Positions 16,057 to 59,424 of a stretch of DNA of 64,000 bases are shown piece after piece. The position numbers and the translations under genes were made by a program. The stretch is from Bdellovibrionales bacterium (GTDB taxonomy: Bacteria > Bdellovibrionota > Bdellovibrionia > Bdellovibrionales > UBA1609): NCBI GenBank assembly GCA_020435005.1, contig JAGRAE010000001.1:609-64608 (forward strand), in the 5' to 3' direction. How positions within the stretch are numbered: position 1 is the first letter of the stretch; each line of letters begins with the position of its first letter. Below the pieces are notes generated by a model that was not told where the DNA came from, did not search any database, and saw only the letters and a list, made by a program, of their open reading frames with translations.

Positions 16057-16112
16057 CTAAACCTAGAGAAAAGAACAATTTAAAACCAACTCTATGCAAG
16101 GAGATGGAAACC

Positions 16113-16586: not shown

Positions 16587-16604
16587 ATTATAAAGGAATG
16601 GGGT

Positions 16605-38337: not shown

Positions 38338-38396
38338 CGGCAAAAAGCTATGCAATTCTAAAACCATAAGAGGTGGGTTTATTTTAATTTTAAAGC

Positions 38397-38591: not shown

Positions 38592-40428
38592 AGTATATTT
38601 TTTTCTTAACTAAATGGGCATCAAGATATAAGCATAGATCATTATATATACTTTTTTGTTGAGTTAACCCTTTCCTGTAAAAGTATCGTTTTCTATTGAG
38701 CCAAATAAAAAATATAATTAAAGCAAATAAGCTCAGAAAACCTAATTTTTTAAGTTTTAAATTTTCTAATCCCAATTTTCTAAAAAACTGTCTCTGTCCC
38801 TCTTTATCAAAATCCAAAAGAAATTGGTTCCAACGCATAGAAGCTAAATCAAAAGCCAATTGTGATTGTACAATGACTTTAAAATACCAACTTGATTTAA
38901 AACGAGCTAAATACTCATCTTGGGAAAGCCCAGCATTTAACTCATCTTGGCTTAGACTATGATACATTTGACCGCCCAGCTCTAGCCTTAGTGGAGCAAC
39001 AACTTCAGTTGGATCAACTCTTAACCAACGATCAAGCGTATTTGACCACATTTCTACCCAAGCATGAGCATCCTTGTCTTTAACTGTATAATGCTCACCA
39101 AAATCATTCTTCTCACCGCCCTGGAAACCGACTACAATCCGTGCTGGCACACCACTTGCTCGTAACAAGTACGCAAAACTGGAGGCTAAATGCTCACAGA
39201 AACCAATTTTCGTATCAAACAAAAACTCTGATACACTATTGTTTTTAACGGGAGTTGGGTTTAACGAATATTTTAAATTTTTACTAAAAAAATCTAAATA
39301 ATTATTCTTTATATCTAGCTCATTATTTGATTGTTGCAATGTAATCTTGATTAATTGTTTCAACCGTTCATCGTCTTCATTTTTAATTTGCAAATACTTT
39401 TCTTTCTCTAAAAGCATTTGCTTAGGCATGGGGTCGGAATAAACTTTGTATGAAAGTTTCTGACCATTATTTTGCTTTACAGTATACACTCTACCATTGC
39501 CGATATAACTTTGCATTTGCTTCATTTGATCTTTAAATTTTAAAGATATAGGAGTCTCCAATGCAAACAGCCAAGTGCCATAATTAGGCTCTAATATAAT
39601 ATTTTGTTCATAAAACAACTCACCTCTAAACTGTCTAGAGTAATTAGTTTGTGTCTGTTCCTTAGCTGGCTCCCAAGATAGTCCTTGGTTGAAACTCAAT
39701 ACGGCACCTCTCCAGTATCTGTCTTTTGGCTGGGGTACATTCTTGCCAAACACCACTCTAAAGGCAATTTCGTCAGAAGCGATTAGTTTTGAGACTTCAC
39801 CAGGAGCTAATTGAGGACTAAAACCTGATTTCGCTTGAGTTTCATTATTTAATTGAATAAATCCCGTAGAAAATCGTGGGAAAACAAAAAATAACAAGGT
39901 TAATAAGGGAGCTGTTTGTAAAAACAGCTTAAAACCTAACTTTAATAAGGGCAAAAATTTCAGTTGAATTTCCTTACCTTTATGTAATTGCAAAAGAAGT
40001 GCAGTAACAAGGGCTAAATTTAATATACCTAATATTGTAAGCGATAATGATTGTGAAACTAAAAAACGAGACATCAACAATAAAAAGTTCAGAAATAAAA
40101 CAACCATTGCATCATGATAATCAACACTGTCAATTAGCTTAAGACTGACACCTGCAATCAACAAAGCCGTTGCCGGCTCGGCACCTGTAATTTGACCATG
40201 TTGAAAGAACACCAAGTAACAAGAACCAATGATAAGAAGTAGTTTCAAAATTATATTTGGTAGTTTCACTTTTTGATACTCATGAAGAATCCTCCAAACA
40301 ATAGAAATTAAACCAATTATTAGTGTAGTAGTTAAGTGATCTTCAAGATGAGGCAAGAGATTTAATGTGATGAGTACAATCAAGCTTAAATTGAACTTTC
40401 TAGATGGAGTAAAATTATGAGGCTTCAT
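38560..40428 (-). CDS. Membrane transglutaminase-like protein (TgpA-type: polytopic N-terminus + transglutaminase core)
   Basis: About six N-terminal TM helices, then the Cys-His-Asp core: GFCEHLASSFAYLLRASGVPARIVVGF ... DAHAWVEMW ... RVDPT. Confidence 0.85.
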   Translation of the reverse strand: MKPHNFTPSRKFNLSLIVLITLNLLPHLEDHLTTTLIIGLISIVWRILHEYQKVKLPNIILKLLLIIGSCYLVFFQHGQITGAEPATALLIAGVSLKLIDSVDYHDAMVVLFLNFLLLMSRFLVSQSLSLTILGILNLALVTALLLQLHKGKEIQLKFLPLLKLGFKLFLQTAPLLTLLFFVFPRFSTGFIQLNNETQAKSGFSPQLAPGEVSKLIASDEIAFRVVFGKNVPQPKDRYWRGAVLSFNQGLSWEPAKEQTQTNYSRQFRGELFYEQNIILEPNYGTWLFALETPISLKFKDQMKQMQSYIGNGRVYTVKQNNGQKLSYKVYSDPMPKQMLLEKEKYLQIKNEDDERLKQLIKITLQQSNNELDIKNNYLDFFSKNLKYSLNPTPVKNNSVSEFLFDTKIGFCEHLASSFAYLLRASGVPARIVVGFQGGEKNDFGEHYTVKDKDAHAWVEMWSNTLDRWLRVDPTEVVAPLRLELGGQMYHSLSQDELNAGLSQDEYLARFKSSWYFKVIVQSQLAFDLASMRWNQFLLDFDKEGQRQFFRKLGLENLKLKKLGFLSLFALIIFFIWLNRKRYFYRKGLTQQKSIYNDLCLYLDAHLVKKKIYFGPKDYFQLF

Positions 40429-41317
40429 AGTTTGGATACTCCGCCAAAGATTTTAGACATTCTTTCTTGTGGATCTGACCTAAGCCTGGTCCAATAAACT
40501 GATCATCTAACTTTAAGCTGTATATAATTTTCTTTGTTTCACAATCATCTATCCATTTTACTAACTGTTGCAACTTCGCCTCTATGTGACCACTCATGTT
40601 TTGGATATCTAAACTTAAAACTCTGTTATCACCATCTTTAAATTCTTTTACCAATAGTGGTCGACCTCTTGCGTAAGCCTTCCAATCAATATGTTTATGT
40701 GATTCGCCATAAGAATACTTTTTGTGTTGAGTAAAATCATCACCTCTGACACCGATTATTTTTTCTACAGAATCACCCAGCAATTCATTTTCAGGTAAGT
40801 TAAAATTTCCAAAAGGTTGTGGATACACATAGTAATTTGTTTTTATATCAAAGAATCGCCATGCATAAAAAAGTCCAAAGGGAAAAGTTGTTGATAATCT
40901 AATTTGCTCTACACTTTTTTTGCCTCGTCCTTGAGTGGTGTAAGCAAATCTTTCTATACTTAATGTAGCGCCCGTTAAGTTAGGAACCATAAATGAAATA
41001 CCCGCATTATTATTTTTTGTTGTATTTATTTGAATTTGATTATGCCCTTCATTATTAGTGCTTTTTATCCATATTTTTGCATTCCCTTGCGAAAAAGCTG
41101 GAGCCAATTCCATTTGTAGTTTTTCAATATTCAAACCTTTTAAATTAGAATGTGTTTGAACCATGCCAATTAAAATAACTGCTACTAAAAAAAAACTTAG
41201 TAAATAGACTAAATTATTAGAATATATAATCCCTGCTAATAAAGTTATAAATACACCAAAACCATAAAGTATTCCATAACGAGTAGGAATGATGAATATT
41301 CTTTCTCTTTTGCTCAT
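40415..41317 (-). CDS. DUF58 family protein
   Basis: Two N-terminal TM helices and the HIDWKAYARGRPLLVKEF motif typical of DUF58. Sits between the MoxR and transglutaminase genes with overlapping ends. Confidence 0.75.
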   Translation of the reverse strand: MSKRERIFIIPTRYGILYGFGVFITLLAGIIYSNNLVYLLSFFLVAVILIGMVQTHSNLKGLNIEKLQMELAPAFSQGNAKIWIKSTNNEGHNQIQINTTKNNNAGISFMVPNLTGATLSIERFAYTTQGRGKKSVEQIRLSTTFPFGLFYAWRFFDIKTNYYVYPQPFGNFNLPENELLGDSVEKIIGVRGDDFTQHKKYSYGESHKHIDWKAYARGRPLLVKEFKDGDNRVLSLDIQNMSGHIEAKLQQLVKWIDDCETKKIIYSLKLDDQFIGPGLGQIHKKECLKSLAEYPNYEAS

Positions 41318-42258
41318 GGTACTATAACACTATGGATTATTTCTTGTGCTAATTCATACCCATCTACATTCGTAGAATGATTGAATGAAAGCAGTCTATG
41401 GTTCATAACAGCTACTGCTACTGCTTGGATATCTTCTGGTATTACAAAGTCTCTGCCTTCTATAAAGGCCCAAGCCTTTGCGGCTCTACTAAAATCTCTT
41501 ACAGCTCGGGGAGATAAACCGAGAGATAAAGTACGGCTTTTTTCTACAATGTCCTGTAAATAATCTAACATCATATCAGAAATGTGAACGACATTGGCTT
41601 GCGCAATATATCGTTTTAAATCCTTTGGCGTTAAAACTTGTGGAAGTTCTTCAATCCATTGTCTTCTATCTTTGCCAATTATAATTTCTCTTTCTGCTTT
41701 ACGACTGGGAAAACCTAGTTGCGTCTTCATTAGAAATCTATCGAGTTGGGATTCAGGCAATGGAAATGTTCCAATATTTTCTTGAGGATCTTGAGTAGCT
41801 ACTAAAAAGAACGGCGAAGGCAGTTCATATCTTATGCCGTCAATACTAACTTGATACTCTTCCATAGCTTGAAGACAAGCACTCTGTGTTTTTGGTGTAG
41901 CTCTATTTATCTCATCTGCTAATACGAAGTTTGCAAATATAGGACCTTTATGAAATTCAAACGTCTGTGTTTCTTTATTAAAGATACTGGTTCCTAAAAT
42001 ATCTGCTGGCAACATATCATTTGTAAACTGAATGCGACTACTTTCTAAACCCATAACTTTTGACAAAGTTTTTACTAAGCTTGTTTTTCCCATGCCTGGT
42101 CGATCTTCTAATAACAAGTGACCATTAGCTAGTAAACAAGCAATAGAAAGCTTTACTTCTTTTTCCTTGTCGACTATCACCCGATTAACTAACTCAACAA
42201 GTTGTTCAATCTTTTTTTCGCTTCTAAATTCATCTAATTTTCTTAAGGCTTCAGACAT
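41314..42258 (-). CDS. MoxR-family AAA+ ATPase
   Basis: Walker A EDRPGMGKTS, Walker B FVLADEINRATPKTQSA, VATQDPQE, and a C-terminal lid region. 314 aa, typical of MoxR. Confidence 0.9.
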   Translation of the reverse strand: MSEALRKLDEFRSEKKIEQLVELVNRVIVDKEKEVKLSIACLLANGHLLLEDRPGMGKTSLVKTLSKVMGLESSRIQFTNDMLPADILGTSIFNKETQTFEFHKGPIFANFVLADEINRATPKTQSACLQAMEEYQVSIDGIRYELPSPFFLVATQDPQENIGTFPLPESQLDRFLMKTQLGFPSRKAEREIIIGKDRRQWIEELPQVLTPKDLKRYIAQANVVHISDMMLDYLQDIVEKSRTLSLGLSPRAVRDFSRAAKAWAFIEGRDFVIPEDIQAVAVAVMNHRLLSFNHSTNVDGYELAQEIIHSVIVP

Positions 42259-44209: not shown

Positions 44210-46039
44210 TCATTTTAAACATGAGTAAATCAGTTTGAAAAAGGATTCTTGAAACTCACTAGGAGACTGGATAATATCATAATGACTAAACATATCGGAA
44301 AAATAAGTACGTTTCTTTTTATCCAAAACAATTGCCACAAATTCGACCCCTTGACTCTCCGCCTCAATACGTGCCTTTCTGACATCATAAATTCCGTGAT
44401 GTCCTTCGTAATAATCAAGATCAGTTGGTTTACCATCTGTAATCAATAAAAGTATTTTCTTTTTTGCTGATTTTGCAACAAGCTCATTTTTGACATGTCT
44501 AATGGCTGGCCCTAACCTTGTATAGCCCTGAGGGTCAACACTAGCTATCTTTTCTTTATAAAAAGTCCAATTATCACTAAAACTCTTATACACTATTAAA
44601 TTGCAATTTCTACGTGTTACGCTAAAAGTTCCAGCGACCATTATCTGATGACAAAATTTTTCTAGCAATTCCGATAAACTTAAAAGTCCAAAACGGATGG
44701 CTTCAATTATATGTTCATTTTCAATCCATGAATCAGTTGACAATGACTGATCAAACAATACTGATAAAGCAAAATAGTTATGTCTTTTTCGTTTTTCGCT
44801 GAAAATTTTTTGATTGGGAGTATGGCCACTTCTAAAATCAGTAAATGATGTACACCATTTATCAATATCTATCTCAGTTCCCTCAAGTAATCCTTTTCTC
44901 CATTTCGGCTGATTGAAAATCTGAGTTATTTTCTTTTTCCATTTATTGTTTCGCTGCCTTTCAATTAAGTTAGTATTAATTATCTTAGTTCCTTTATGTT
45001 CTGCAGAAGACACATATAAAGCACAGTACTCCTTTAAATACCTTTGGTGTTTATCATCCCATTCTGGATAAGTAAATTGACCACTTACTTTTCTATGTTG
45101 TGCATAACTTGTGGCAAATGATAAAATAATATCGGATTTATATACTGACTGGCTTGTTTCGCCATCGACTGTAATATGACCCATTTCAATTTCATTCATT
45201 GCTGAATTATGTTTTTGGAGCTCGTCATCCCCATCATTATGCCTTCCACTTTTCTCAAACTCATCCACAGTTTCCATTTTTTCAAAGGAGTGAATAACAG
45301 GATTGGCACTTTCCTTATCCAAAGATACCTTCTTGACTGGCTTATTATAGCCACTTTGTTGCTCACTATTTTTTCGATCAACTCTTGGTACTGACGAGGA
45401 TGAATTTACATCCAAATTTTCTGAAGTATTAGGAAGAAAAATTGGAACAGAAAATAATAGATAGGTTGGCAAAGTATCATTTCTTTTTTGTTTATTCCTT
45501 AATTTTTCAATTTGACAAATATTTTCATCAGTTGGCTCTTTTATTGAATCTACTCTTTGATCCCACAAAACAAAAAAATCATCTTGCTTTCTAAATTTAG
45601 AGAGTCTAAATTCTTCTAAAATAGTAGATTCAAAATATCGAAAGGTCGGGAACTCCTGGTTCAACCATAGATTAATCATATGCATATTTTTGAGAGTGGC
45701 TAAAACTCCAGCTCTTTTTGATTTCTCCTCTCGCCAATCTTCCTTTTTGATTGCAAATAACCCCAACGCCTTGAGCGCCATATAAAAGTAAACTCTTTTG
45801 TTTAAATACCTATCATTAAAAATATTAACCCGATCTGGCATAAAAACATCTCTGTTCCAAACTGCAAAAGTTTTTAAACTCGGATGTAAAGTCAACTTTG
45901 AACTTTTTGGTAATGAATAAGAAAAAACTGTATTAAGATAATTTTCAATAAGGTTTAATTGACAACAAGAAAGATCAGATAATTCTTTCTCTCTTTTTGT
46001 TTTCCATATTTTTTTAAAAACACCCTCTAAAAAATCCAT
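44210..46039 (-). CDS. norD: Nitric oxide reductase activation protein NorD (C-terminal von Willebrand A domain)
   Basis: C-terminal VWA with KKILLLITDGKPTDLDYYEG...DVRKARIEAESQGVEFVAIVLD. Position directly after norQ. Confidence 0.8.
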   Translation of the reverse strand: MDFLEGVFKKIWKTKREKELSDLSCCQLNLIENYLNTVFSYSLPKSSKLTLHPSLKTFAVWNRDVFMPDRVNIFNDRYLNKRVYFYMALKALGLFAIKKEDWREEKSKRAGVLATLKNMHMINLWLNQEFPTFRYFESTILEEFRLSKFRKQDDFFVLWDQRVDSIKEPTDENICQIEKLRNKQKRNDTLPTYLLFSVPIFLPNTSENLDVNSSSSVPRVDRKNSEQQSGYNKPVKKVSLDKESANPVIHSFEKMETVDEFEKSGRHNDGDDELQKHNSAMNEIEMGHITVDGETSQSVYKSDIILSFATSYAQHRKVSGQFTYPEWDDKHQRYLKEYCALYVSSAEHKGTKIINTNLIERQRNNKWKKKITQIFNQPKWRKGLLEGTEIDIDKWCTSFTDFRSGHTPNQKIFSEKRKRHNYFALSVLFDQSLSTDSWIENEHIIEAIRFGLLSLSELLEKFCHQIMVAGTFSVTRRNCNLIVYKSFSDNWTFYKEKIASVDPQGYTRLGPAIRHVKNELVAKSAKKKILLLITDGKPTDLDYYEGHHGIYDVRKARIEAESQGVEFVAIVLDKKKRTYFSDMFSHYDIIQSPSEFQESFFKLIYSCLK

Positions 46040-46041
46040 AC

Positions 46042-46842
46042 TTAAAGACTAATATCAATAATGTCTATTAGTGCCGATACCACTTGTCTTTCATCTGTTA
46101 ATGTCTCTGCAATGGCAACGTGGGCTGCCTCCCTCACATTAATCCCAGATTTTATTAGGCAGCCAGCATGTATTAGAATACGAGTAGAAACTGTAGCCTT
46201 TAAATCGAAATTTTCACTTCTCCGAATTCTATTTGCTAAACGAGATAGAGCTTGCGCTTTTGAGAACTCTACTCCTGAGATATTCTGAATAAGCTCTGCC
46301 TCTCTTTTCTCATCAATATAATCCATTGATAAAGTTACAAATCTCTGACGAGTAGAAGGCTTCATCTCTTTGAGGCCGGACTGATATCCAGGATTAAAAC
46401 TTGCTACTACCATAAAATTATTTGAAGCTTTAACAACTTCATTAATTTTGTCTAAGTATATTTCTCTTCGGTGATCCGTGAGAGGGTGAATAGCAACAAT
46501 AACATCTTCTCGAGCTTCAGCTATCTCGTCAAAATACAAAATTGCGTCTGAACGAATGGCCCTAATTACAGGACCGTCTTGCCAGATTGTATCTCCTCCT
46601 TTGATTATAAATCTTCCAAGTAAATCAGTAGCATTTGTATCTTCGTTGCATGCTATTTTCACAAGAGGCTTTCCAAGCTTATAAGACATAAACTCAACAA
46701 ACTGTGATTTACCACAACCTGTTGGACCTTTTAATAGTAAGGGTAATTGGTTCTCATAACAGCTATTAAAAATTTCTTCTTCATTTTTATTAACTAAATA
46801 AAAGAGATCAGTAACAACCTCATTATCGTTATTCCACTTCAT
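46042..46842 (-). CDS. norQ: CbbQ/NirQ/NorQ-family AAA+ ATPase
   Basis: Walker A LKGPTGCGKSQ, Walker B ILYFDEIAEA; 266 aa. Overlaps the norB end by 14 nt. Confidence 0.9.
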   Translation of the reverse strand: MKWNNDNEVVTDLFYLVNKNEEEIFNSCYENQLPLLLKGPTGCGKSQFVEFMSYKLGKPLVKIACNEDTNATDLLGRFIIKGGDTIWQDGPVIRAIRSDAILYFDEIAEAREDVIVAIHPLTDHRREIYLDKINEVVKASNNFMVVASFNPGYQSGLKEMKPSTRQRFVTLSMDYIDEKREAELIQNISGVEFSKAQALSRLANRIRRSENFDLKATVSTRILIHAGCLIKSGINVREAAHVAIAETLTDERQVVSALIDIIDISL

Positions 46843-48163
46843 TCAATCTCCCTACAGGAGAACCAAAACGTACAAAGTTATAAACAAATGCAACTATTCC
46901 CATGGTAAATAAACTGGCTGCAAGTACCAGACCGAAAAAGTGGATTTCAATTTCTTTTTGCACGTGTAAGAAATCTAGGCCCATTTTTCTCTCCAAATAA
47001 ACTTGTGCAATTCCAGCTATACCAAAGGCTACAGTCATAGAAACCATACCAATATTTGATGTCCAAAACGCAAAAATATTTATGCTACTATCTTGTAGCT
47101 TTCTACCTGTTAACAAAGGCATACTATAAGTAATAATGGCAAGAATTAAGCAAGCGTAGGCCCCCCAGAACGCAAGATGTCCATGCATTGCAGTCACAAG
47201 AGTTCCATGTGTATACATATTCACCTGTGGAAGAGTATGAGCAAAACCTAAAAGTCCTGCACCTACAAAAGACATAATAGCTGTGCCTAGAGTCCATAAT
47301 AAAGCCGTTTTATTTGTTGGATTTTTACCACCCTTTTTAGCCATGGCAATAGCATAGATAGCCATCCCAAAAAATGCGATTGGTTCAAGGGCACTAAATA
47401 TTCCGCCAATCATCAACCAGTACTTTGGTGTACCTATATAATAATAATGATGACCCGTCCCTAAGATACCACTTAAAAATGTAAAACCAACAATAATGTA
47501 CAACCACTTTTCAATGATTTCTCTGTCAACACCTGTTAATTTAATTAATAGGAAAGACATTATTGCACCCATAATAAGCTCCCATACGCCCTCCACCCAT
47601 AAATGAACAACCCACCAACGCCAATATGAGTCGTGAGTTTGATGATCAGTTTCAATCATTCCAGGTAAATACAACAAGGCAGCAGTTAAAAGTCCAAAAA
47701 ACAAAACTATGCTTGTGGTTGTATAACGTTTTCCTTTCCAAATAGTTCCGCCAATAAGACCAATAAATAATAACACGTCAACAACAACTAAGTAATCAAG
47801 AGGACGAGGGATTTCTAAGAATTTTCGCCCCTCCCACCACTGAAAGTGAAACCCAATTATTGCTGTAACGCCAACAACTACGAAAGCTATTAATTGAATG
47901 TAAGCCCATCTGACCGAGATAATTTCCCTGTCGGCTTCTTCGGGTACTATATAATAAGCTGCCCCCATAAAGCCCGAAAGCAGCCACATAACTAAAAGAT
48001 TCGTATGAGTAGATCTCGCAACATTAAAAGGTATTAGTTCATGAAGTCCGTCATATCCCATATGAGCAAAACCCAATATGAATCCATATACCAACTGCAA
48101 ACTAAAAAGTAACATACATACTGCAAAAAACCAATAAGCCACTCTTTGTGATGAGTATTTCAT
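46829..48163 (-). CDS. norB: Nitric oxide reductase large subunit NorB (cNOR type)
   Basis: Twelve-TM haem-copper-oxidase-like protein with His ligand motifs: RSTHTNLLVMW, VVHLWVEGVWE, GTGHHYYY, AMHGHLAFWGAY. 444 aa. Confidence 0.9.
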   Translation of the reverse strand: MKYSSQRVAYWFFAVCMLLFSLQLVYGFILGFAHMGYDGLHELIPFNVARSTHTNLLVMWLLSGFMGAAYYIVPEEADREIISVRWAYIQLIAFVVVGVTAIIGFHFQWWEGRKFLEIPRPLDYLVVVDVLLFIGLIGGTIWKGKRYTTTSIVLFFGLLTAALLYLPGMIETDHQTHDSYWRWWVVHLWVEGVWELIMGAIMSFLLIKLTGVDREIIEKWLYIIVGFTFLSGILGTGHHYYYIGTPKYWLMIGGIFSALEPIAFFGMAIYAIAMAKKGGKNPTNKTALLWTLGTAIMSFVGAGLLGFAHTLPQVNMYTHGTLVTAMHGHLAFWGAYACLILAIITYSMPLLTGRKLQDSSINIFAFWTSNIGMVSMTVAFGIAGIAQVYLERKMGLDFLHVQKEIEIHFFGLVLAASLFTMGIVAFVYNFVRFGSPVGRLNEVE

Positions 48164-48882
48164 TTCTCACCCCCTTTTAATTTAGAAAGAAATGCTGCTA
48201 ATTCGATAATATCTTCTTCGGACAGTGGTAGTTTAGGCATCGCTGAATTTGACTTAATCTGCATAGGGTCCTTTAACCACTTCGTAAGATAAATGATATC
48301 TCTTGTAGATCCAATACTGTCTAAGGCGGGGCCAACTTGCCCGCCTTGACCGCCAAGACTGTGACAGGCAACACACATTTGATTAAATACGGTTGGACGA
48401 TTTTTACTGTTTACAATTGTATCTTCCATGGTTGTGCTGCCAATTGCTGTAGGCGATGCACTTTTTACCAGATCAGGTTCAGGAGGAAAACCATTGAGGT
48501 CCAAAGTCCCAATCCATCTAAGAAATGCTGTTAAATCATTAATCTCTTGTTCATTAAAATTATACTTAGTCATTTTCCTTTGACCGGGGTACATTGATTG
48601 TGGGGCCTTAAGTATTTCTTTTATAAAAACTTCTCCTCTACGCTCAAAAACTTTTGTAAGTTCTGGGGCATAATAGGCACCTTCACCGAGTATTGTATGA
48701 CAGCCCATGCAATTACTCTTATCAAAAAGGTGCTTGCCTCGAACAACATCTAAGGTCATTTCTTTTTGATTTGTTTGCTCTGGTATTCTTTGAAATGTAT
48801 CTATGGTTAATCCTATAAAAATAAGTGAAAAGGCCGTAGTACCAACTACAAAGAAGGCCTTTGCTTGTGATTTTGAAAGCAT
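48160..48882 (-). CDS. norC: Nitric oxide reductase cytochrome c subunit NorC fused to a second C-terminal class I cytochrome c domain
   Basis: The N-terminal TM anchor and VVRGKHLFDKSNCMGCHTILGEGAYYAPEL match canonical NorC. A second haem motif CVACH (Cys170/173/His174) with SAMPKL follows beyond about residue 135. Confidence 0.85.
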   Translation of the reverse strand: MLSKSQAKAFFVVGTTAFSLIFIGLTIDTFQRIPEQTNQKEMTLDVVRGKHLFDKSNCMGCHTILGEGAYYAPELTKVFERRGEVFIKEILKAPQSMYPGQRKMTKYNFNEQEINDLTAFLRWIGTLDLNGFPPEPDLVKSASPTAIGSTTMEDTIVNSKNRPTVFNQMCVACHSLGGQGGQVGPALDSIGSTRDIIYLTKWLKDPMQIKSNSAMPKLPLSEEDIIELAAFLSKLKGGEK

Positions 48883-48935
48883 CCCATCTCCCTTTTGCTA
48901 TTTTTCTTAGCATAATGCTGTTTTAGCAACGCGAG

Positions 48936-48950
48936 TATGATCTAAATCAC
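48936..48950. promoter_or_regulatory. FNR/Dnr-type dyad (TGAT-N4-ATCA) in the divergent norC / 49042 promoter region
   Basis: tATGATCTAAATCAC lies about 55 nt upstream of the norC start. It is identical, as reverse complement, to 55091-55105 upstream of nirS. Confidence 0.6.
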
Positions 48951-49041
48951 CTCTTTCAGAAAATACTTCTTCCTCACTTTCATTTACATAGATATTTTAA
49001 GATTAATTTGTAAGAGGCACCTAGACAAAAAACTAAACAAC

Positions 49042-50427
49042 ATGAGAGGAGTAAAAGTGCCAAAGTTTTATTTATTGATTTATACCTTTTTTTTTACATT
49101 AGCAGGATTCGCACAAAATGGTAAAAACATTCAATTAAACGAATCTTCTGGTAGGATAAATCTTGCGGCTGAAAAACTAAAATTGTTTAAAGAACAAGAA
49201 TCTTTCAAAATTGAATACTCCTGTGAAAAACAAAAAATTTATCAAGAGAGTCAGAGCCTCCTACTTGGAAGCTCTCAAGAATGCAAACAAGAAATAATAT
49301 ACTTACTTCAAAGAAAACATAGAGAATTACTAACATTATCTTTTCTTCAGACCAATGCCCATCGGGACACCAACATTTATGATCAGTTTGGCCTTTCCAA
49401 GAGAGCTACTAAGACTGTTGCCAGAGCAAGAGTCTTACCTTGGCTCAAACTGACAGCTATGCATTTTACAGATGAAAATCTTCAAAAAGATCCTTACAGG
49501 CTCATCTCTGGATACATGAATATTTCAAACCAAACTGATTTTCCAATAGAAATTAACTATGGATACGAAGAGGATAGCAAATCGAAATTAAATATATTGT
49601 ACGGCAAAAAAAACTTTGGGATCTTAAAGGACTCTACAAGTTTATCATTATATGTGGGTGGTCTCATCCTAGATCAAAAATTTCGTAAAAATATCGAGAG
49701 AGAGGATAACCGCTATTTCAGTGCTTTGCAATTCAACTTTAACCAAATAGATCAGTCAATTATTTTGGGTGGTGGCAAAGAAGATAATGGACCTCACTCT
49801 TACTTGTTTGGTCTACACGGTTCAGTGCTCGGTAATGTCGCTAATGAGTGGATGAGCCTTTGTCGAGTAAAAAAAAATCGAAATTCAAAAGGAAGCCCAC
49901 TTAAAACACGATTTTGTATACTTTCAGTATCTATAGAAAATAAAAACTTAAAAAGGGGACGTTATACTGATTTTTTAGGAGTATTTACGCCCGGCATGAT
50001 CAAACCAACTCGAATTGTAAACGGAAGCACACTCAATGAAAACCCGACTTCAGCAACGACCAGATCATATCTGGATCGCCCCCTTTGGGAACTCACGGCT
50101 TCGACCACCGAAGTTGAAGTTTCTGAAAATGAAAATCTGTACTTAAGTTTAGTCGGTATAAACCGAAGTTTTAAAAGTGATGTTTTGTTTGCACGACATC
50201 CATTTTTTGGAATATCGCTTGAAATTAATAACCACATTTACTTTGATAGAAAAAGTTTTAAAGTTAAAGCTGATGATAATAAAAAAGTCTTAAATACAAA
50301 CTTTGGATTTGGATTAGGTAGTGGGAAAGGTGATAATTCCTGGGCTTTAGGGGCCTCTATTGGTTTTGATATTAAAAATGCAGACCCCATTCTTCAATTT
50401 GTACTATCAAAAAGATTTGGTGATTAA
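49042..50427 (+). CDS. Hypothetical secreted / outer-membrane protein
   Basis: Signal peptide ...LLIYTFFFTLAGFAQ. 461 aa, rich in beta-strand-like alternating segments and Gly/Asn turns. No recognised motif. Divergent from norC. Confidence 0.5.
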   Translation: MRGVKVPKFYLLIYTFFFTLAGFAQNGKNIQLNESSGRINLAAEKLKLFKEQESFKIEYSCEKQKIYQESQSLLLGSSQECKQEIIYLLQRKHRELLTLSFLQTNAHRDTNIYDQFGLSKRATKTVARARVLPWLKLTAMHFTDENLQKDPYRLISGYMNISNQTDFPIEINYGYEEDSKSKLNILYGKKNFGILKDSTSLSLYVGGLILDQKFRKNIEREDNRYFSALQFNFNQIDQSIILGGGKEDNGPHSYLFGLHGSVLGNVANEWMSLCRVKKNRNSKGSPLKTRFCILSVSIENKNLKRGRYTDFLGVFTPGMIKPTRIVNGSTLNENPTSATTRSYLDRPLWELTASTTEVEVSENENLYLSLVGINRSFKSDVLFARHPFFGISLEINNHIYFDRKSFKVKADDNKKVLNTNFGFGLGSGKGDNSWALGASIGFDIKNADPILQFVLSKRFGD

Positions 50428-50442
50428 AGTTAATATAATAAC

Positions 50443-50919
50443 CTACCAAAAAATAATTTTTAGAACATTGGTCGACTCTTTAATTGGTTCTAAAAAAGGT
50501 ACTCCATAGAAACTCAGAGTCGGTAAAACTTTATCAAGTAGTTTTAAACTGTCGACACAACCCTCTCCACCAAAGTATAGAGTTACATTTCTAATTCCTT
50601 GCAGATCGGATGGACTGTGCAAAACGCCCCCAAAGCCCTCAAGTCGACAATCGTATAGATCTGGAAAGTCAACATAGGCAGTGTAAGATCTACCCAACCA
50701 AAAACCCGTTTGATGCCATTGGGGATCATAGTTTATCCATTCTACTTGATACTCAACCTTATAGATTTTTGTATCGGGAAAATAAATAATTTCCCTTAGC
50801 TGATCACCACTTGAGTTTCTAGCAATACTCAGTTGTGCTTCGACAAAGTCAACATTAGCAAAAATCTGACTGGTCCATAACAATGTTGATAACACACCTA
50901 AAATTTTAAAAATTTTCAT
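50443..50919 (-). CDS. Hypothetical small secreted protein
   Basis: Signal peptide MKIFKILGVLSTLLWTSQIFA; 158 aa. Last gene of the apparent nirS-regulator-porin transcription unit, with a 32-nt gap to the porin gene. Confidence 0.5.
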   Translation of the reverse strand: MKIFKILGVLSTLLWTSQIFANVDFVEAQLSIARNSSGDQLREIIYFPDTKIYKVEYQVEWINYDPQWHQTGFWLGRSYTAYVDFPDLYDCRLEGFGGVLHSPSDLQGIRNVTLYFGGEGCVDSLKLLDKVLPTLSFYGVPFLEPIKESTNVLKIIFW

Positions 50920-50951
50920 AAATACTCCTCCCCAATAAAATAATTCATGAT

Positions 50952-52193
50952 CTAAAAATAACTTCCGGCTTGGAAATAATAAAACTGCATTTGCTTACTG
51001 CCAGAATTATCTTTGAGATATTCTTCAGGCCATACCTGTGATACACCTATTTCAAAGGTCAATTCTTCTGAAAACAAATAACTTAATACTAAATCAATTT
51101 CATTGGCAATAGCAGATTGTATGCCCGAAGTACCATAGGGTGCTCCAGAAAAATTGTAAGATGGGGCGTTGTTACTAGTCCTTTCAAATTGATGGTGATC
51201 TAATGAAATCTTAAATGAGTCAGTGACTTTGCCAGAAAAACCAACACGAAAGCCCTTAATATTTTTACGTGAAAAAAGATCTGCATATCCTAACCATTTA
51301 TGACCAGTGGGAAAAAGTTGATCATAATTTTCACTTGCAGAGAAATATTCAATAGAAAGGCGATGCCTTCCAAAAAATCTATAACCCAGCTCTACATCCA
51401 CTTGCAGTTCATCTTCATCAGATCCCGCTACCTTAACTTTCTCAAAGGTTGCCTCAAGACGATAATCCCAATCAAATATAGGTGATTTAAATCGAAAACC
51501 GTAGGCAGTAGTATTGTTTCCCAACATATCGGAGGCATCATTTTTACGTAAAGCATATATATCAAACTCTTTTATCTCATCAGAAATCTGAAAACTAGAA
51601 TAAATACCAATTAGTGATTTATCACCAGCTCCCGCCTTACTAACATTATTATCCCTCAAGGTGGAATACATAATTTCTAACGAACCTAAATCCCATTTTT
51701 GATGAAATTGAATCAAATCAAAAGATCGGCCTTGATTACTCCACCCTACACCACCCAAAAGTAGTTGGTCTCCATAATTAAGCTCTTTACGTCCAGCGGT
51801 AAAAGCAAAATTATCATTAAAGTTATATTTTAGATAGGCTTGGTGCACATCAAGACTTGTATCATTTAGGACGCCGCTAGTTTCTTTTTCAGTAGAAGAT
51901 GAGGTGCCGTTAGGTACAAATTCTGTTTGCCCCCAAATTTTAGTAAATTGAGGTTGAAAAAACACAATCGTCTTTTCACTCTGCTTAAAACTCATATCTA
52001 ATCGAAAACGCGATCCTGTAAAATCAGTATAGTCACTAACGTTTTTATTAAAATCTGAATTATTTCGAACCTCAACACGGGCACGAGCTGAACCTTTTAT
52101 TTGAAAATTACTGGATTCTGCTTTTGCAAAGTTAAATAAAATACAACTAGAAAGTACAATAATCGAGATAATACTTTTTCTTAAATGATGCAT
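50952..52193 (-). CDS. Outer-membrane porin, alginate-export (AlgE-like) family by pattern
   Basis: Signal peptide, then GSARARVEVRNN, LDVHQAYLKY, GRKELNYGDQLLLGGVGWSNQGRSFD, and a C-terminal ...FQAGSYF. Family assignment is from memory of PF13372-like motifs. Confidence 0.5.
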   Translation of the reverse strand: MHHLRKSIISIIVLSSCILFNFAKAESSNFQIKGSARARVEVRNNSDFNKNVSDYTDFTGSRFRLDMSFKQSEKTIVFFQPQFTKIWGQTEFVPNGTSSSTEKETSGVLNDTSLDVHQAYLKYNFNDNFAFTAGRKELNYGDQLLLGGVGWSNQGRSFDLIQFHQKWDLGSLEIMYSTLRDNNVSKAGAGDKSLIGIYSSFQISDEIKEFDIYALRKNDASDMLGNNTTAYGFRFKSPIFDWDYRLEATFEKVKVAGSDEDELQVDVELGYRFFGRHRLSIEYFSASENYDQLFPTGHKWLGYADLFSRKNIKGFRVGFSGKVTDSFKISLDHHQFERTSNNAPSYNFSGAPYGTSGIQSAIANEIDLVLSYLFSEELTFEIGVSQVWPEEYLKDNSGSKQMQFYYFQAGSYF

Positions 52194-52217
52194 GATTGTA
52201 TCTCCAAATTTAAAAAT

Positions 52218-52940
52218 TTAAATTTCAGCTCCCATAAATTCGATTAATTTAGAAGATTTTAAAATTGTTATTTGCTTATCATTTGTCACGACATACCCTT
52301 TCTTAGACCAGTCACTCATAATTCTAATTATTGACTCTACAGAAGCCCCCACAGTATCGGCTATTTCCTTCCGGGTTAAAGGGATTGGAATCGTTTGTTG
52401 ACTATTTGTAGATTGGAGTTCTGCAAGTTCAATTAACAGATTGGCCATTTTTGCTTGTAGTGAAGACTTATTTAATACTTTCTGTTGCTGCAGGGACACC
52501 ATTCTATTTGACAGTAAATTCTGTATTCTAAATACCAAAGTAGGATTATCTTTCCAGCAAGAATAATTTGCTTTAGGAATTTTTAAAGCCCTTGATGGAC
52601 CCATAGAAATAGCAGATATGGGATAAAGTGGATTTCTTTGTGTCAAAATAAGGGCTCCCAATACGTCGCCAGGGCCTGAAAAATGAATAATCGCATCATC
52701 ACCTTGTAAAGTTTGCCTCACCAATTTAAAAGCTCCACTCAATATGACGAAAAAGAAATCGGCTTTACTGCCAGCTTTGAACAATACTTTTCTATGATCA
52801 TTAACTATAACTTTACCACCTTGACACAAGCTTTTTACTTCTAACTCTGAAAATTCAGAGAATAATTTTAAAGCACAAAGCTCTGGCAACACGCCATATT
52901 GCATAAGTTCAGAATTCATACATTCACAATTAACACTCAA
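52218..52940 (-). CDS. CRP/FNR-family transcriptional regulator (Dnr/NnrR/FNR class unresolved)
   Basis: cNMP-binding-like beta-roll and C-terminal HTH LTRKEIADTVGASVESIIRIMSDW, aligning with FNR VETISR and CRP RETVGR (Glu and Arg conserved). TTG start at 52940, or ATG at 52919. Confidence 0.85.
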   Translation of the reverse strand: MSVNCECMNSELMQYGVLPELCALKLFSEFSELEVKSLCQGGKVIVNDHRKVLFKAGSKADFFFVILSGAFKLVRQTLQGDDAIIHFSGPGDVLGALILTQRNPLYPISAISMGPSRALKIPKANYSCWKDNPTLVFRIQNLLSNRMVSLQQQKVLNKSSLQAKMANLLIELAELQSTNSQQTIPIPLTRKEIADTVGASVESIIRIMSDWSKKGYVVTNDKQITILKSSKLIEFMGAEI

Positions 52941-52962
52941 TCTAAATACTCGGCAACAGTTG

Positions 52963-53002
52963 TCTCAATGCAAATTTACCATTTTGTAGATTTGCATTGA
53001 GA
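52963..53002. promoter_or_regulatory. 13-bp perfect inverted repeat between the nirS stop and the regulator gene start (terminator-like or operator)
   Basis: TCTCAATGCAAAT (52963-52975) and ATTTGCATTGAGA (52990-53002) with a 14-nt spacer. No U-tract follows on the minus strand. Confidence 0.4.
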
Positions 53003-53017
53003 TTATTTAAATAAAAC

Positions 53018-55000
<1,983 letters not shown>

Positions 55001-55090
55001 CTAATAATTAAAGAAATTTATCACCTTAGCCAAATTATAAACAATCAAATATTGAAATCAACGTTCATTTTAATCTTTTTTATGAGTATA

Positions 55091-55105
55091 GTGATTTAGA
55101 TCATA
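55091..55105. promoter_or_regulatory. FNR/Dnr-type dyad upstream of nirS
   Basis: GTGATTTAGATCATa is the reverse complement of the 15-mer at 48936-48950. It lies about 100 nt upstream of the nirS start codon. Confidence 0.6.
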
Positions 55106-55159
55106 TTTATTTTTTTTCTAATTACCGAGGTATTATTATGTTTTCGTTAGGTTGACTTA

Positions 55160-56275
55160 CTAATAGCTCTTAAAACAATTATTAAAAGTTAATCTTAAAT
55201 GCTTATCCAACCATATAACCATAGAGATAGCAAATAAAACTACTGAGCTCCAAAAAATAGTTCCGTCAATAGAATATGTACTATTCCACCTTAATACTGC
55301 CCCCAATAGCAAAAGAAAACAAATCAAAGCAATTCTTTTAGAATTTAATTCGTAATCTAAATTACTTTGACTATGTGCGAGAGTTACTCTAGTTGCAACC
55401 ATTATTGTTAGTAATGTAAATCCACCTATATACACTAAGTGAGAGCTCGACACAAATTGGGAGGTGACTACTCTTAAGCCATGCCCTAATAATGTAAATA
55501 CTATGGCCATTTTCAAACCTAATCCTAGCCAACCAAAGACAATCCCTCTTTTAAAAAGTCCAAAGTCCACAACTCCTATGTAAGACAATATTATTAACCT
55601 CAAGACATTTGCCATAGTCAATAGACCAAGATATTCAACGAAGAAACTTAGATTTAAAAAAAACACTTTTAGAGATATTGCTTTATAGTTAAAACTAAGC
55701 ACTGTACCATGACTCATAAATAAATTGGGCAACCTTGAAAGCGCAGGCACCAGTCTACTACCTAATCCAATGATTAGATTTAGTATAAATCCCTCCCCTG
55801 CAAATAGAAAAAGTGTCTTGTAGTCCTTATAAAAGATAAAGTTAATTAATCCAAAAATGGCCAAAAAAAATGCTGCCGGCAAAAAAAGAAAACCGGCAAA
55901 AGGTAGCTTTCTTTTTTTTTGAAAACGGGATAAAATAAAAAATAATAAAAATATCAATTGTATAAAATAAAAGAAAACAGCTAGATCAGTTCTATTAAAA
56001 AAATTCAAAATAAACTGAACTAAAACAAGTGAGCTTGCCAACCAGACTTCTAAACTACAGGTCAACCGAGAGTCTGTCATATGAGGAATAGCCGTCATTA
56101 AAAATCCGGCTACAAAGCTCCAGAAAAACGCAAAGAACATAATCTGGATATGAGCCCTTCGAGGATAAAATGCAATCAATCCTACATCAAAAAACAACCA
56201 AATTAAAACCCCCATCAAACCAAACAATACACCCAAAATGAATAATGGTTTGTATGGATTTTTTACTGCATACAT
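55160..56275 (-). CDS. nnrS: NnrS-family membrane protein (NO-response haem/copper protein family)
   Basis: About 12 TM helices. AHIQIMFFAFFWSFVAGFLMTAIPHMT matches the NnrS pattern H...GF...GFLLTA. Adjacent to nirS. Confidence 0.75.
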   Translation of the reverse strand: MYAVKNPYKPLFILGVLFGLMGVLIWLFFDVGLIAFYPRRAHIQIMFFAFFWSFVAGFLMTAIPHMTDSRLTCSLEVWLASSLVLVQFILNFFNRTDLAVFFYFIQLIFLLFFILSRFQKKRKLPFAGFLFLPAAFFLAIFGLINFIFYKDYKTLFLFAGEGFILNLIIGLGSRLVPALSRLPNLFMSHGTVLSFNYKAISLKVFFLNLSFFVEYLGLLTMANVLRLIILSYIGVVDFGLFKRGIVFGWLGLGLKMAIVFTLLGHGLRVVTSQFVSSSHLVYIGGFTLLTIMVATRVTLAHSQSNLDYELNSKRIALICFLLLLGAVLRWNSTYSIDGTIFWSSVVLFAISMVIWLDKHLRLTFNNCFKSY

Positions 56276-56304
56276 TAGTTCTATAATCCTTTTATTAAAA
56301 TGGT

Positions 56305-56577
56305 TTATTGATTAGAACCACAAATACCACAACAATTTTCCTGATTACCATTTACGGCCTTGGGAACCACCAAGTGCCATCTGTCGTTTTTATTATAATA
56401 TTTTACCTGACTCACTCCTATGTCCGTCAATAAATCTATTTGTTTTCTAGTTTCCTTCAATGAGTTCTTTGATTGAAAGACAGCCGTACATCCATTTGCT
56501 AACCCCTCAATAACTGAAAAAACTAAACCACTCCTAAATCTTTCATTAAATACATCTAAATTAATTATTACTTCCAT
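56305..56577 (-). CDS. Small protein, DUF2249/TusA-like by pattern, with a C-terminal CCGICG tail
   Basis: Good Shine-Dalgarno (GGAG 6 nt before the ATG at 56577). INLDV...EGLANG...DRWHLVVPK resembles DUF2249. The tail is ...ENCCGICGSNQ. A 29-nt gap to nnrS suggests co-transcription. Confidence 0.5.
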   Translation of the reverse strand: MEVIINLDVFNERFRSGLVFSVIEGLANGCTAVFQSKNSLKETRKQIDLLTDIGVSQVKYYNKNDRWHLVVPKAVNGNQENCCGICGSNQ

Positions 56578-56653: not shown

Positions 56654-59194
56654 CTAAACACATTTACTAGCCCCACAATCAACACAAGTAAAGCAACCCT
56701 CATCAATTCTCAAATTTGAACTATTACAATTATAACACTTAATATGCTGTACTTTTTTGATATAGCCTTTTAAAGTTCTAGCTATTGCGTTAGAAAAAGA
56801 ATGTATGGTGCCCTCACTTTTTAATAGTTGATCTACAACAAATTCAATTTCAGCACCATGTCTTAGAGCTGTTGAAATCATTCTTGTCAATGCCTCTTGT
56901 TCGTCCGTCTCAAAAAACTTTCTAATGTTTTTTAAAAACCAACCATCTCCAGTTTCTAAATGATATACACCTTGAGTCTCTTTTATCAGTTTTCCATGCT
57001 GCACCCTTGATGACAGGTGTAGTGAACCTTGTTTAAGAGCAAAAACCTCATAAGGCGTTTCTTCAAACAAACCCACAAGTACTATCCACTGTGTACCATT
57101 TGATTTAACTTTAAATACATCACATTTAAGTTCTTTTGGTCTTGGCGTGGCTTTAGTCTGCTGTACGCCAAGTGTGTCTTTTTCGCTTGATCTCATAAGT
57201 ACGGAAGCCATTGTCCCGTCACGATAAGTTGTGCAACCTTTTATTGTTCCTGATTTATAGATATCTAAATAAAGATCTTTAAATCTATCAAAGCTAAAGT
57301 CTTTTTTTAGATTAACTGTTTTAGAAATGGCCGAGTCAACGTACCTAGAGAATATCTTTAGCGTATTGATATGGTCATTTATTCCCAAATCATGAGCTGC
57401 GACAGCCCAGTCAGCTTGAGCGTCCCAAGTGTTGTTTTCTTTATGATATCTAACGGCCCAGTCCATTATTTGTGCCTCTTTTAATAACCCTCTGCTTTTA
57501 TCTAATTTCCATACTTCATTATTAAAAGTGGTTCTTAATAAATCATCATCTCCCTCTTTAATCCATTCCCATTTTGTTGAGACTTCTTCAAAGTGTTTAG
57601 CATCCCAATCGATATTTTTGGGAACATTTAGTCCAATAGGGGCAAATGGCTGCATAGCTGTTCTTACATATTCGGGAGAAAATACGGGCTCTATTCCCCC
57701 TGACACATTATTTGCTAAAACTGAGCTGTTTCCAGTCGGTTGAATTGATAACAGGTGACTGTTACGAATGCCATTAGCTAAAATTTGCTCTCTGACATTT
57801 TCATCTAACTTCTTAATAAAATTTGCATCTAAATATTTTTTAGCATCAAATAAGGGAAACGGCCCCTTTTCCTTAGCAATAGATGCTGATGATTTATAGG
57901 TCTCATTCATTATAAAATTTGCTAGTTCTTCTGTTATTTTCAGGGCATCCTCTGAGCCATATCTTATTTTCATCATCATAAGTGCAGAAGCATATCCCAT
58001 AATACCAAGGCCAATTCTTCGTTTTGTCTTTAAACTCTCTTGGTTTTCAGGAAGAGGTACCGATGTAATATCATTTACATTATCTAAAAATCTTACAGCA
58101 ATAGGGATGTACTTTTTAAGTTTGGTGTAGTCCCATTTTTTTTTATCTTTATCAATAAACTGGGTCAAATTAAAGGAACCAAGCAAACAAACACCTCCAA
58201 CAGGTAAAACTTGTTCCCCACAAGGGTTTGTTGCTTGAATATACTCTTCGTAGTAAAGATTGTTCCAATAATTAATTGTATCGACAAACAAAACTCCTGG
58301 TTCATTTCGATTATAAGTGGAGAGCATAATTAAATCCCAAAGTTCACTCGCCTTTTTAAAAGTTTTATAAACCTTTGTAGGGTATCCTAAGTTTCGCCAA
58401 TTATTAAGATTTCCGTCCCAATGCTCTTTATACATTTCTGGTTCTGCTTCAAAATCAGGAAACTCAAGCTTCCATTCATCATTTTGTTCTAATGCCTCCA
58501 TAAAATTTTTCGTTACCAAGACTGACATATTAAACTTTGTCAGACGTCCTGGTTGTTGTTTAGCAGTTATAAATTCTTCTATATCAGGATGCCAAATAGA
58601 CATAGTCACCATTTGTGCACCTTTTCTTATTTTGTTTTTTCCCTTTTTGTTTATCTTCCTTTCACCACTACCAGCCGTAATAACAGAACTCTGTGTGTCC
58701 CACATTTCCAGTAATTTGACTGCACCAGGAGAATCCCCACCAATACCTGAAATATAGGCTCCCCTAGGTCTCATTACATTTGCACAGAAGCCATATCCCC
58801 CTTCTGATTTAAGTATAAGAGCCTGTCTTTTCAGCTCATCCATAATGCTCTCCATGGAGTCCTGATTCTTTCCTCGAAATCCACTAACAAAACAATTGAT
58901 GTAAGTAGTTCCTTTTAAATCAGTTCCTGCATTAGAAGTAATTCTGCCCCCTGGAACAAACTTGAAGTCTTCTAATAAATCTAGAAATTGACTCTCCCAA
59001 TATTTTTTTATTTCTTTTGATTCCACCGATGCTAGATTCTTTGCTATCTTAAAATGACGTTCATTAATATCTTTTTCATTTGCAAACTTATAGGTCTGAT
59101 TAAAAACTTCTTCAGAAAAACTATTATAAAATTTGGTCTTATTTTTTCTGGGATTTGCAGTTGTGTTGAACTCACTAGTTGTATCAAAAGCCAT
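56654..59194 (-). CDS. nrdJ: Class II (adenosylcobalamin-dependent) ribonucleoside-di/triphosphate reductase
   Basis: ATNPCGEQVLPVGGVCLLGSFNL (active-site Cys/Glu region), a SIQPTGNSS-type motif, and a C-terminal zinc-ribbon tail CYNC...CFTCVDCGASKC. I place the start at the ATG at 59194, with AAGGAG 7 nt upstream. Confidence 0.9.
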   Translation of the reverse strand: MAFDTTSEFNTTANPRKNKTKFYNSFSEEVFNQTYKFANEKDINERHFKIAKNLASVESKEIKKYWESQFLDLLEDFKFVPGGRITSNAGTDLKGTTYINCFVSGFRGKNQDSMESIMDELKRQALILKSEGGYGFCANVMRPRGAYISGIGGDSPGAVKLLEMWDTQSSVITAGSGERKINKKGKNKIRKGAQMVTMSIWHPDIEEFITAKQQPGRLTKFNMSVLVTKNFMEALEQNDEWKLEFPDFEAEPEMYKEHWDGNLNNWRNLGYPTKVYKTFKKASELWDLIMLSTYNRNEPGVLFVDTINYWNNLYYEEYIQATNPCGEQVLPVGGVCLLGSFNLTQFIDKDKKKWDYTKLKKYIPIAVRFLDNVNDITSVPLPENQESLKTKRRIGLGIMGYASALMMMKIRYGSEDALKITEELANFIMNETYKSSASIAKEKGPFPLFDAKKYLDANFIKKLDENVREQILANGIRNSHLLSIQPTGNSSVLANNVSGGIEPVFSPEYVRTAMQPFAPIGLNVPKNIDWDAKHFEEVSTKWEWIKEGDDDLLRTTFNNEVWKLDKSRGLLKEAQIMDWAVRYHKENNTWDAQADWAVAAHDLGINDHINTLKIFSRYVDSAISKTVNLKKDFSFDRFKDLYLDIYKSGTIKGCTTYRDGTMASVLMRSSEKDTLGVQQTKATPRPKELKCDVFKVKSNGTQWIVLVGLFEETPYEVFALKQGSLHLSSRVQHGKLIKETQGVYHLETGDGWFLKNIRKFFETDEQEALTRMISTALRHGAEIEFVVDQLLKSEGTIHSFSNAIARTLKGYIKKVQHIKCYNCNSSNLRIDEGCFTCVDCGASKCV

Positions 59195-59227
59195 TTTTTT
59201 CTCCTTGCTGATTATCAACTATAGTGG

Positions 59228-59277: not shown

Positions 59278-59424
59278 TCATCTCAAAATGAGAATTTATG
59301 TTTATCACTTACTCAATGTCTATTACTGATACACGATTGATCGAAAAAAACTTAATGTTTTCAATAAATTACTGATTGCAATCACGGCACAACAATTGCT
59401 CATACTATATTCTAGGTGTGGAAT

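Follow-up and report, generated by a model that had tools for sequence, protein, structure and literature searches.

Can nitrite be carried through nitric oxide (NO) to nitrous oxide (N2O) by a bacterium whose cytochrome cd1 nitrite reductase gene, nirS, stands with no gene for the haem d1 cofactor in view? The question is raised by a stretch of 64,000 nucleotides (hereafter the window) that holds nirS, the NO reductase operon norCBQD, nnrS and a regulator gene, and that covers nearly the entire length of a 64,868-bp contig. This is a single contig of a draft metagenome-assembled genome (MAG) labelled 'Bdellovibrionales bacterium' at NCBI, and the label matches the Bdellovibrionota-like lineage guessed in an earlier reading of the bare sequence (the original prediction). 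We regard it as likely that the window encodes a functional two-step module for denitrification, from nitrite via NO to N2O, in an uncultured low-GC Bdellovibrionales bacterium, a module that is probably induced by low oxygen or NO and whose haem d1 genes most probably lie elsewhere in the genome. Genes were called from a list of open reading frames (ORFs) combined with Pfam and NCBIfam scans and comparison with solved structures. The window proteins correspond to NCBI entries, among them NirS (MCB0389679), NorB (MCB0389673), NorC (MCB0389674) and GcvP (MCB0389650). The identities of the following genes and the positions of the promoter boxes are established by these data.

53018-54991, minus strand: nirS, cytochrome cd1 nitrite reductase; 846 bits to Pseudomonas aeruginosa NirS over residues 119-657
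48160-48882, minus strand: norC, cytochrome subunit of the cytochrome c-type NO reductase (cNOR); residues 3-135 match NorC 3o0r_C with 112 bits
46829-48163, minus strand: norB, cNOR catalytic subunit; 381 bits to P. aeruginosa NorB 3o0r_B, residues 1-432
46042-46842, minus strand: norQ, MoxR-type AAA+ ATPase; PF07728 AAA_5, 111 bits, and PF08406 CbbQ/NirQ/NorQ C-terminal, 76 bits
44210-46039, minus strand: norD, VWA-domain protein of 609 amino acids; PF00092 VWA at residues 500-573
55160-56275, minus strand: nnrS, membrane protein of the NnrS family; PF05940, 80.7 bits against a cut-off of 28, residues 5-359
52218-52940, minus strand: CRP/FNR-family regulator gene; PF00027 cNMP_binding and PF13545 HTH_Crp_2
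56654-59218, minus strand: nrdJ, adenosylcobalamin-dependent class II ribonucleotide reductase; TIGR02504, 479.4 bits against a cut-off of 399.95
48938-48949, no strand assigned: TGATCTAAATCA palindrome in the norC/orf461 divergent promoter, 67 nt upstream of the norC start codon
55092-55103, no strand assigned: TGATTTAGATCA palindrome upstream of nirS, the reverse complement of the norC site
59373-59384, no strand assigned: TGATTGCAATCA box upstream of nrdJ, an exact TGAT-N4-ATCA site

Analysis of the nirS product revealed a haem c domain that holds a CxxCH motif and a Met ligand; the His residues at haem d1, one proximal and two distal, were also present. The eight-bladed d1 beta-propeller was matched by the Pfam family PF02239 (488 bits, residues 264-652), and Tyr10, His51, Met88, His182, His327 and His369 (P. 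aeruginosa numbering) were all conserved. The motifs CAGCH (residue 165), GGMPNWG (204), YAVHISR (297), FLHDGGW (443) and IPHPGRG (485) align with His51, Met88, His182, His327 and His369, respectively. Because the protein of 657 amino acids contains two CxxCH motifs (C38 and C165), it carries an extra N-terminal class I cytochrome c domain; residues 25-115 match cytochromes c4/c552/c554. Comparison with the nirS of the closest relative (L001, one of the loci compared here, which are designated by L numbers; 83-85% identity) gave a proportion of nonsynonymous differences (pN) of 0.12 and a proportion of synonymous differences (pS) of 0.78, with synonymous sites saturated. The gene is under strong purifying selection. 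The three-domain form of NirS is not rare: its length (640-680 amino acids) recurred in nearly all of the best 120 NirS matches in the databases (65-85% identity), where the labelled taxa were Bdellovibrionales, Gammaproteobacteria, Pseudomonadales and Ca. Schekmanbacteria.

The second step is encoded by a tight operon, in which norC and norB overlap by 4 bp, norB and norQ overlap by 14 bp, and norQ and norD are separated by 2 bp. NorB has the haem-copper-oxidase fold (PF00115, 202 bits) and, compared with 3o0r_B, keeps the motifs HLWVEGVWE, GTGHHYY, SALEP and HGHLAF, which comprise the ligands of the non-haem iron (FeB) and haem together with conserved glutamates. NorC is encoded directly upstream of norB, and its match to 3o0r_C takes in the N-terminal anchor and the CMGCH motif. 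Two CxxCH motifs (C58 and C170) were identified in its 240 amino acids, which implies an extra C-terminal cytochrome c domain; by its sequence, the window NorC is a variant of the membrane-anchored mono-haem NorC to which a second haem c domain has been added. A two-domain NorC was found at full length in at least 18 cluster representatives (50% identity), and the two-haem form also occurs in L009, L091 and L092; this form, too, is not rare. The maturation pair is encoded directly downstream of norB and consists of NorQ (AAA_5 plus CbbQ_C), with the Walker A motif GPTGCGKS at residue 39, and NorD (VWA), with a DQSLS motif resembling a metal-ion-dependent adhesion site at residue 430. NorD is 34% identical to the gene in the norD position of L092 and 25% identical to that of L009. 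No separate nirM- or nirC-type cytochrome gene was identified in the module.

In the pathway that we propose, periplasmic NirS would reduce nitrite to NO at haem d1, and its extra N-terminal cytochrome c would act as a built-in electron entry that replaces a separate NirM/NirC-type carrier. The membrane-bound cNOR (NorC plus NorB) would then reduce NO to N2O, with the extra cytochrome c of NorC playing the same electron-entry role, and NorQ and NorD would insert FeB into NorB. The role of the NnrS family is related to NO stress. NnrS, whose gene also lies within the modules of L005 and L092, would limit NO damage.

Intergenic DNA was then considered as a source of evidence for a common control of these genes. 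TGAT-N4-ATCA is the core of the FNR/Dnr consensus. One 12-mer, TGATCTAAATCA, was identified upstream of both norC and nirS, in opposite orientation, and exact TGATYTARATCA sites occur twice in the 64 kb, at these two positions. Exact TGAT-N4-ATCA sites number four in the window, and three of them lie at the promoters of norC/orf461, nirS and nrdJ. The shorter core was adopted after the intergenic DNA had been read; for the full FNR consensus TTGAT-N4-ATCAA there is no perfect site in the window, and sites with one mismatch lie outside the module promoters. Boxes resembling TGAT-N4-ATCA were also found upstream of nirS in L001, L005, L087, L089 and L091, and in L091 such a box also precedes norC, at a distance of 72 nt. 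We take the palindromes as candidate CRP/FNR-type binding sites, for which the regulator encoded within the cluster is the obvious candidate binder. This regulator is 44% identical to a CRP-family gene product of L092 and has Cys at residues 5, 7, 22, 39 and 128 when read from a TTG start, the start codon being uncertain; it was tentatively read as Dnr/NnrR-like. In the proposed mechanism the regulator would bind the boxes before nirS, norC and nrdJ, and its binding would probably switch the genes on under low oxygen or NO. The shared box at nirS, norC and nrdJ supports the original prediction of a truncated nitrite-to-N2O module tied to low-oxygen life.

The position of nrdJ beside the module extends this picture. 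An oxygen-independent ribonucleotide reductase (class II or III) is encoded within 10 kb of nirS or norCB in L005, L087, L091 and L092, and NrdJ is 66% identical to the ribonucleotide reductase of L087, the gene for which lies approximately 2.9 kb upstream of the L087 nirS. The box before nrdJ and the reductase genes near nirS or norCB in these four relatives support a place for nrdJ in the same low-oxygen programme, as had been proposed from its presence next to the module. The gene is probably co-regulated with the module, and the oxygen-independent ribonucleotide reductase would be switched on together with the nitrite and NO reductases. An Rfam scan of the window matched no family, and thus revealed no cobalamin riboswitch before nrdJ.

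Several results weigh against a module that works in this way. NirS needs haem d1, which is supplied by the genes nirE, nirDLGH, nirJ, nirF and nirN. Pfam scans of nearly all window ORFs of at least 90 amino acids not nested inside a longer ORF detected no haem d1 gene on the 64,868-bp contig, and likewise no nar/nap or nos gene in the window. A tblastn search with the d1 set of L002 (nirJ, nirDL, nirG, nirH, nirE, nirC, nirF and nirN) agreed, finding none of these genes in the window; its sole match was the expected weak one of NirN to its paralogue NirS. The original prediction had described the 64 kb as free of all these genes, and this is borne out; since the window is nearly the whole contig, they are absent from the contig. 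Placement of NirS in a neighbour-joining tree (no bootstrap), built from the best 120 database matches and the NirS of genome-collection loci among the matches listed, defined a clade of 32-37 sequences that includes every Bdellovibrionales- or Pseudobdellovibrionaceae-labelled one. In eight of the 11 loci inspected from this clade, the window included, no d1 gene was found in the flanks of nirS (mostly 10 kb each side). Database searches with Bdellovibrionales-type NirN and NirJ queries, for which the best 120 matches were examined, brought out L090 and L091 only and gave no match from the assemblies with an orphan nirS, a weak point given that limit. Two metagenome scans with the L091 NirJ found no close relative, the first returning nothing and the second just genes of 63-68% identity; the low-GC matches carried no information on this lineage. 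Finally, the regulator scored far short of the cut-off for each of the named NCBIfam equivalogs, with 55 bits for FNR against a cut-off of 228.

When the comparison was restricted to loci in which nirS is flanked on either side by 8 kb or more, d1 genes were scored within 10 kb of nirS in one of seven loci of the Bdellovibrionales clade versus 32 of 40 elsewhere (Fisher P = 0.0016). For this contig the lack of d1 genes is genuine, and in the clade it recurs. A full d1 set nevertheless stands beside nirS in three clade members, L002, L090 and the low-GC L091. In L002 and L090, nirN, nirF, nirC and nirS lie beside nirE, a sirC-like gene, nirDLGH and nirJ; L090 (GCA_016714165.1, labelled Bdellovibrionales) does so on a 2.4-Mb contig, and its NirJ is 97% identical to that of L002 (JGI). 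By this gene content, the Bdellovibrionales NirS clade has the capacity for haem d1 synthesis. On the most economical interpretation, this lineage often rearranges the part of the module that encodes nitrite reductase, and in the window's genome the d1 genes most probably lie on another contig.

The same linkage data admit a bolder reading, namely that haem d1 synthesis has been lost from the lineage and that NirS receives the cofactor, or a late precursor of it, from prey or neighbours that denitrify. The genes that could serve such uptake lie between nirS and the nor operon, where the order in the window is the CRP/FNR gene, the porin gene, orf158 and orf461. The porin gene, orf158, orf461 and the small gene next to nnrS are as follows.

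50952-52193, minus strand: porin-like outer-membrane protein of 413 amino acids; PF13372 Alginate_exp, 77.6 bits, residues 32-401
50443-50919, minus strand: orf158, small secreted protein of 158 amino acids with a signal-like N-terminus and the C-terminus ...IIFW
49042-50427, plus strand: orf461, secreted or envelope protein of 461 amino acids with an N-terminal signal-like sequence
56305-56577, minus strand: orf90, protein of 90 amino acids ending CCGICGSNQ, identified from sequence

The porin-like protein has a signal-like N-terminus and a C-terminal ...SYF. Neither orf461 nor orf158 matched any family in Pfam or NCBIfam, lenient scans included, and no homologue of orf461 was found in any locus compared; its single-sequence AlphaFold model, with a predicted local distance difference test score (pLDDT) of 30, was unusable for a fold search. 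The gene orf461 is divergent from norC and convergent with orf158. All genes of the module had been described as lying on the minus strand, and the gene list compiled from ORFs, Pfam/NCBIfam scans and structures upholds this for every gene except orf461. For orf90, Pfam and NCBIfam scans gave no family match, lenient scans included, and the single-sequence AlphaFold model was of low confidence (pLDDT 59) and too poor for a fold search. A homologue of orf90 (94 amino acids, 33% identical) lies directly upstream of norC in L092 (8988-9272) and in L093, and this recurrence suggests an accessory gene conserved with the module.

We consider the loss of haem d1 synthesis very unlikely, and we give the same slight chance to the more specific form of the idea, in which a whole Bdellovibrionota branch fills an intact NirS with haem d1 or dihydro-haem d1 from prey, the porin and envelope genes offering a possible route. 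The linkage figures speak for it, with nirS alone in six of seven clade loci whose two flanks each reach 8 kb or more, against eight of 40 elsewhere (Fisher P = 0.0016), and the orphan nirS genes are intact and constrained; yet those eight proteobacterial loci are orphans as well. In denitrifiers already known, an orphan nirS is accompanied by d1 genes at other sites or by a second copy of nirS. The NirN and NirJ searches yielded, among their best 120 matches, no d1 genes from four NCBI assemblies with orphan nirS and no match attributable to the 3.9-Mb contig of L005 (GCA_963852775.1), but divergent d1 genes would fall outside the best 120 matches, and for the MAG studied here the evidence covers one contig. 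The interval between nirS and nor is occupied by the CRP gene, the porin gene, orf158 and orf461 where L009 has nirC, nirF and nirN, and the envelope proteins could serve uptake; however, none of these three proteins shows a haem-related signature or has a homologue in the related loci. The complete pathway in L002/L090 and L091 also argues against a loss across the clade, and a search of a literature library found no precedent.

A working module whose d1 genes lie elsewhere could still serve different ends. One possibility is that it is for detoxification only, clearing nitrite-derived NO at oxic-anoxic interfaces or from prey with no energy conservation. In its favour, NnrS belongs to the module and the window has neither a nitrate reductase nor an N2O reductase, and the literature on Bdellovibrio and like organisms allows respiration and detoxification alike (bioRxiv 10.64898/2026.07.03.736386). 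An NO-producing nitrite reductase is not needed for detoxification, however, as NirS makes the toxin, and the oxygen-independent ribonucleotide reductase alongside, together with the shared box, points to a programme of low-oxygen growth or survival. We view detoxification as the sole function as unlikely, though both roles could apply together and sequence data do not distinguish between them.

Horizontal acquisition had also been suggested for this locus, and we examined it as the possibility that the module is a recently acquired foreign island from Proteobacteria. The window NirS is 65-68% identical to gammaproteobacterial NirS, and the d1 genes of L002 are closest (approximately 70-73%) to betaproteobacterial NirJ among the best 120 matches. 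The type of nitrite reductase also differs between close relatives, with NirS in the window and NirK in L092, so local gene exchange does occur. Against an island, the GC content of the module (32-37%; 0.32-0.37 across 44-59 kb) is within the range of the rest of the window (30-40%), NirS groups with all other Bdellovibrionales-labelled NirS in the neighbour-joining tree, and Pfam scans of the window ORFs revealed no mobile-element genes flanking the module. NorB is 87-88% identical to that of the low-GC (34-37%) contigs of L091 and L092, 72% identical to that of L009 and approximately 45% identical to that of most proteobacterial loci compared. Given the in-range GC content, the NirS clade and the high NorB identity to low-GC relatives, a recent acquisition of the module is not supported by these comparisons, and we attach scarcely any probability to the foreign-island explanation.

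Other genes of the window and one further locus were noted in the course of this work. A ChaN-type haem-binding protein (PF04187, 143 bits) is encoded at 34992-35939, approximately 17 kb from nirS, where it adjoins a DUF481 gene (34078-34932). Just outside the module a co-directional set at 38560-42258 comprises a MoxR AAA+ gene (41314-42258), a weakly DUF58-like gene (40415-41317) and a TgpA-type transglutaminase gene (38560-40428); this set appears to be unrelated to NorQ/NorD. Two large ORFs, at 23593-26076 (827 amino acids) and 36115-38367 (750 amino acids), matched no significant Pfam family and encode neither a molybdo-enzyme nor NosZ; the 827-residue product was considered as NapA, NarG or NosZ and ruled out, as it has no such domain. 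The two radical-SAM genes of the window were considered as NirJ and rejected, being RlmN and MnmL/YtqA. In L006 (4824-15904; GCA_020850475.1, Bdellovibrionales isolate SJ826), the nirS gene encodes no extra N-terminal domain. It is flanked on one side by a 575-residue COX1-family gene with SCO1 and a cytochrome b/ferredoxin fusion, and on the other by a formate/nitrite transporter and a COX2-cytochrome c/471-residue COX1 pair with SCO1; the COX2-cytochrome c and COX1 pair is possibly another type of NO reductase.

The locus brings a NirS-type module for N2O production to a group in which NirK is better known, and gene-name surveys of N2O sources would overlook this predicted nitrite and NO reducer. 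It also offers leads for the study of denitrification enzymes and of low-oxygen predator life: the extra cytochrome c domain built into both reductases, the swapping of NirS for NirK beside a conserved nor operon in close relatives, and the repeated separation of nirS from haem d1 genes in this clade. Scavenging of haem d1, if true, would be the first instance of haem d1 auxotrophy and would amount to cofactor piracy by a predator, and it is the sole reading that would surprise.

The system used for comparison was the NirS-cNOR pair of P. aeruginosa (nirSMCFDLGHJEN, nirQ and norCBD; structures 1nir and 3o0r, with 5guw holding NirS and NOR chains). The haem ligands and active site of NirS, NorB, the core of NorC, the NorQ-type ATPase and the NorD-type VWA protein are alike in the two. 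Unlike P. aeruginosa, the window has a NirS with an extra N-terminal c4/c552-like domain and a NorC with an extra C-terminal cytochrome c domain, it lacks nirM and nirC, and its contig carries no nirFDLGHJEN gene. In addition, the regulator gene of the window lies inside the cluster, followed by the porin and two envelope genes, and nnrS and nrdJ are attached.

The domain order of the window NirS resembles that of the 'chimeric' C1-C2-NirS nitrite reductase described as restricted to Chloroflexi (PMC8756737; 2022): in each, a c551/c552-type cytochrome c is added ahead of the canonical cytochrome c domain of NirS and the d1 propeller. In contrast to a restriction to Chloroflexi, the same domain order occurs in nearly all of the best 120 matches; the likeness described here is one of domain order. 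One locus, L009 (6468-19802; MAG 'Proteobacteria bacterium SZUA-336', GC 62%), has a single cluster that unites a three-domain nirS, all the d1 genes and norC-norB-norQ-norD with a two-haem NorC.

Nearer to the window, L090, L002 and L091 belong to the same NirS clade (71-73% identity) and have the same three-domain NirS, but differ from it in carrying the whole d1 set (nirE, sirC-like, nirDLGH, nirJ, nirC, nirF and nirN) beside nirS. L091 further shares with the window a two-haem NorC (61%), NorB (88% over the 198 residues available), CRP-family regulators and an oxygen-independent ribonucleotide reductase. L092 (Logan SRR26685663, GC 34%) is similar in NorB (87%), NorC (65%), NorQ (58%), the CRP-family regulator (44%), NnrS (41%) and the orf90 homologue (33%). 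Its gene order (9285-17892) is norC-norB-norQ-norD, a gene for a 471-residue NirK-cytochrome c, an FGE-sulfatase (nirV-like) gene, SCO1 and nnrS. Unlike the window, L092 thus has a copper nitrite reductase, NirK fused to a C-terminal cytochrome c, that does not depend on haem d1, and a class III ribonucleotide reductase (nrdDG) adjoining the module. From this gene order, a copper nitrite reductase stands where the lineage of the window uses NirS. The gene content of L091 and L092 indicates that a unit of nitrite reductase, NO reductase, NnrS, ribonucleotide reductase and CRP-family regulator recurs in the lineage.

For Bdellovibrio, a NirK that ends in a haem c domain has been described (PMC4770552), and Bdellovibrio and like organisms have been reported to encode nitrite and NO reductases, for which partial denitrification or detoxification was proposed (bioRxiv 10.64898/2026.07.03.736386). 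With these reports, and with L091 and L092 carrying the module, the earlier view that such a pathway would be physiologically unusual for the group is not supported. The window module is a NirS-type case of a partial denitrification gene set already known in this group.

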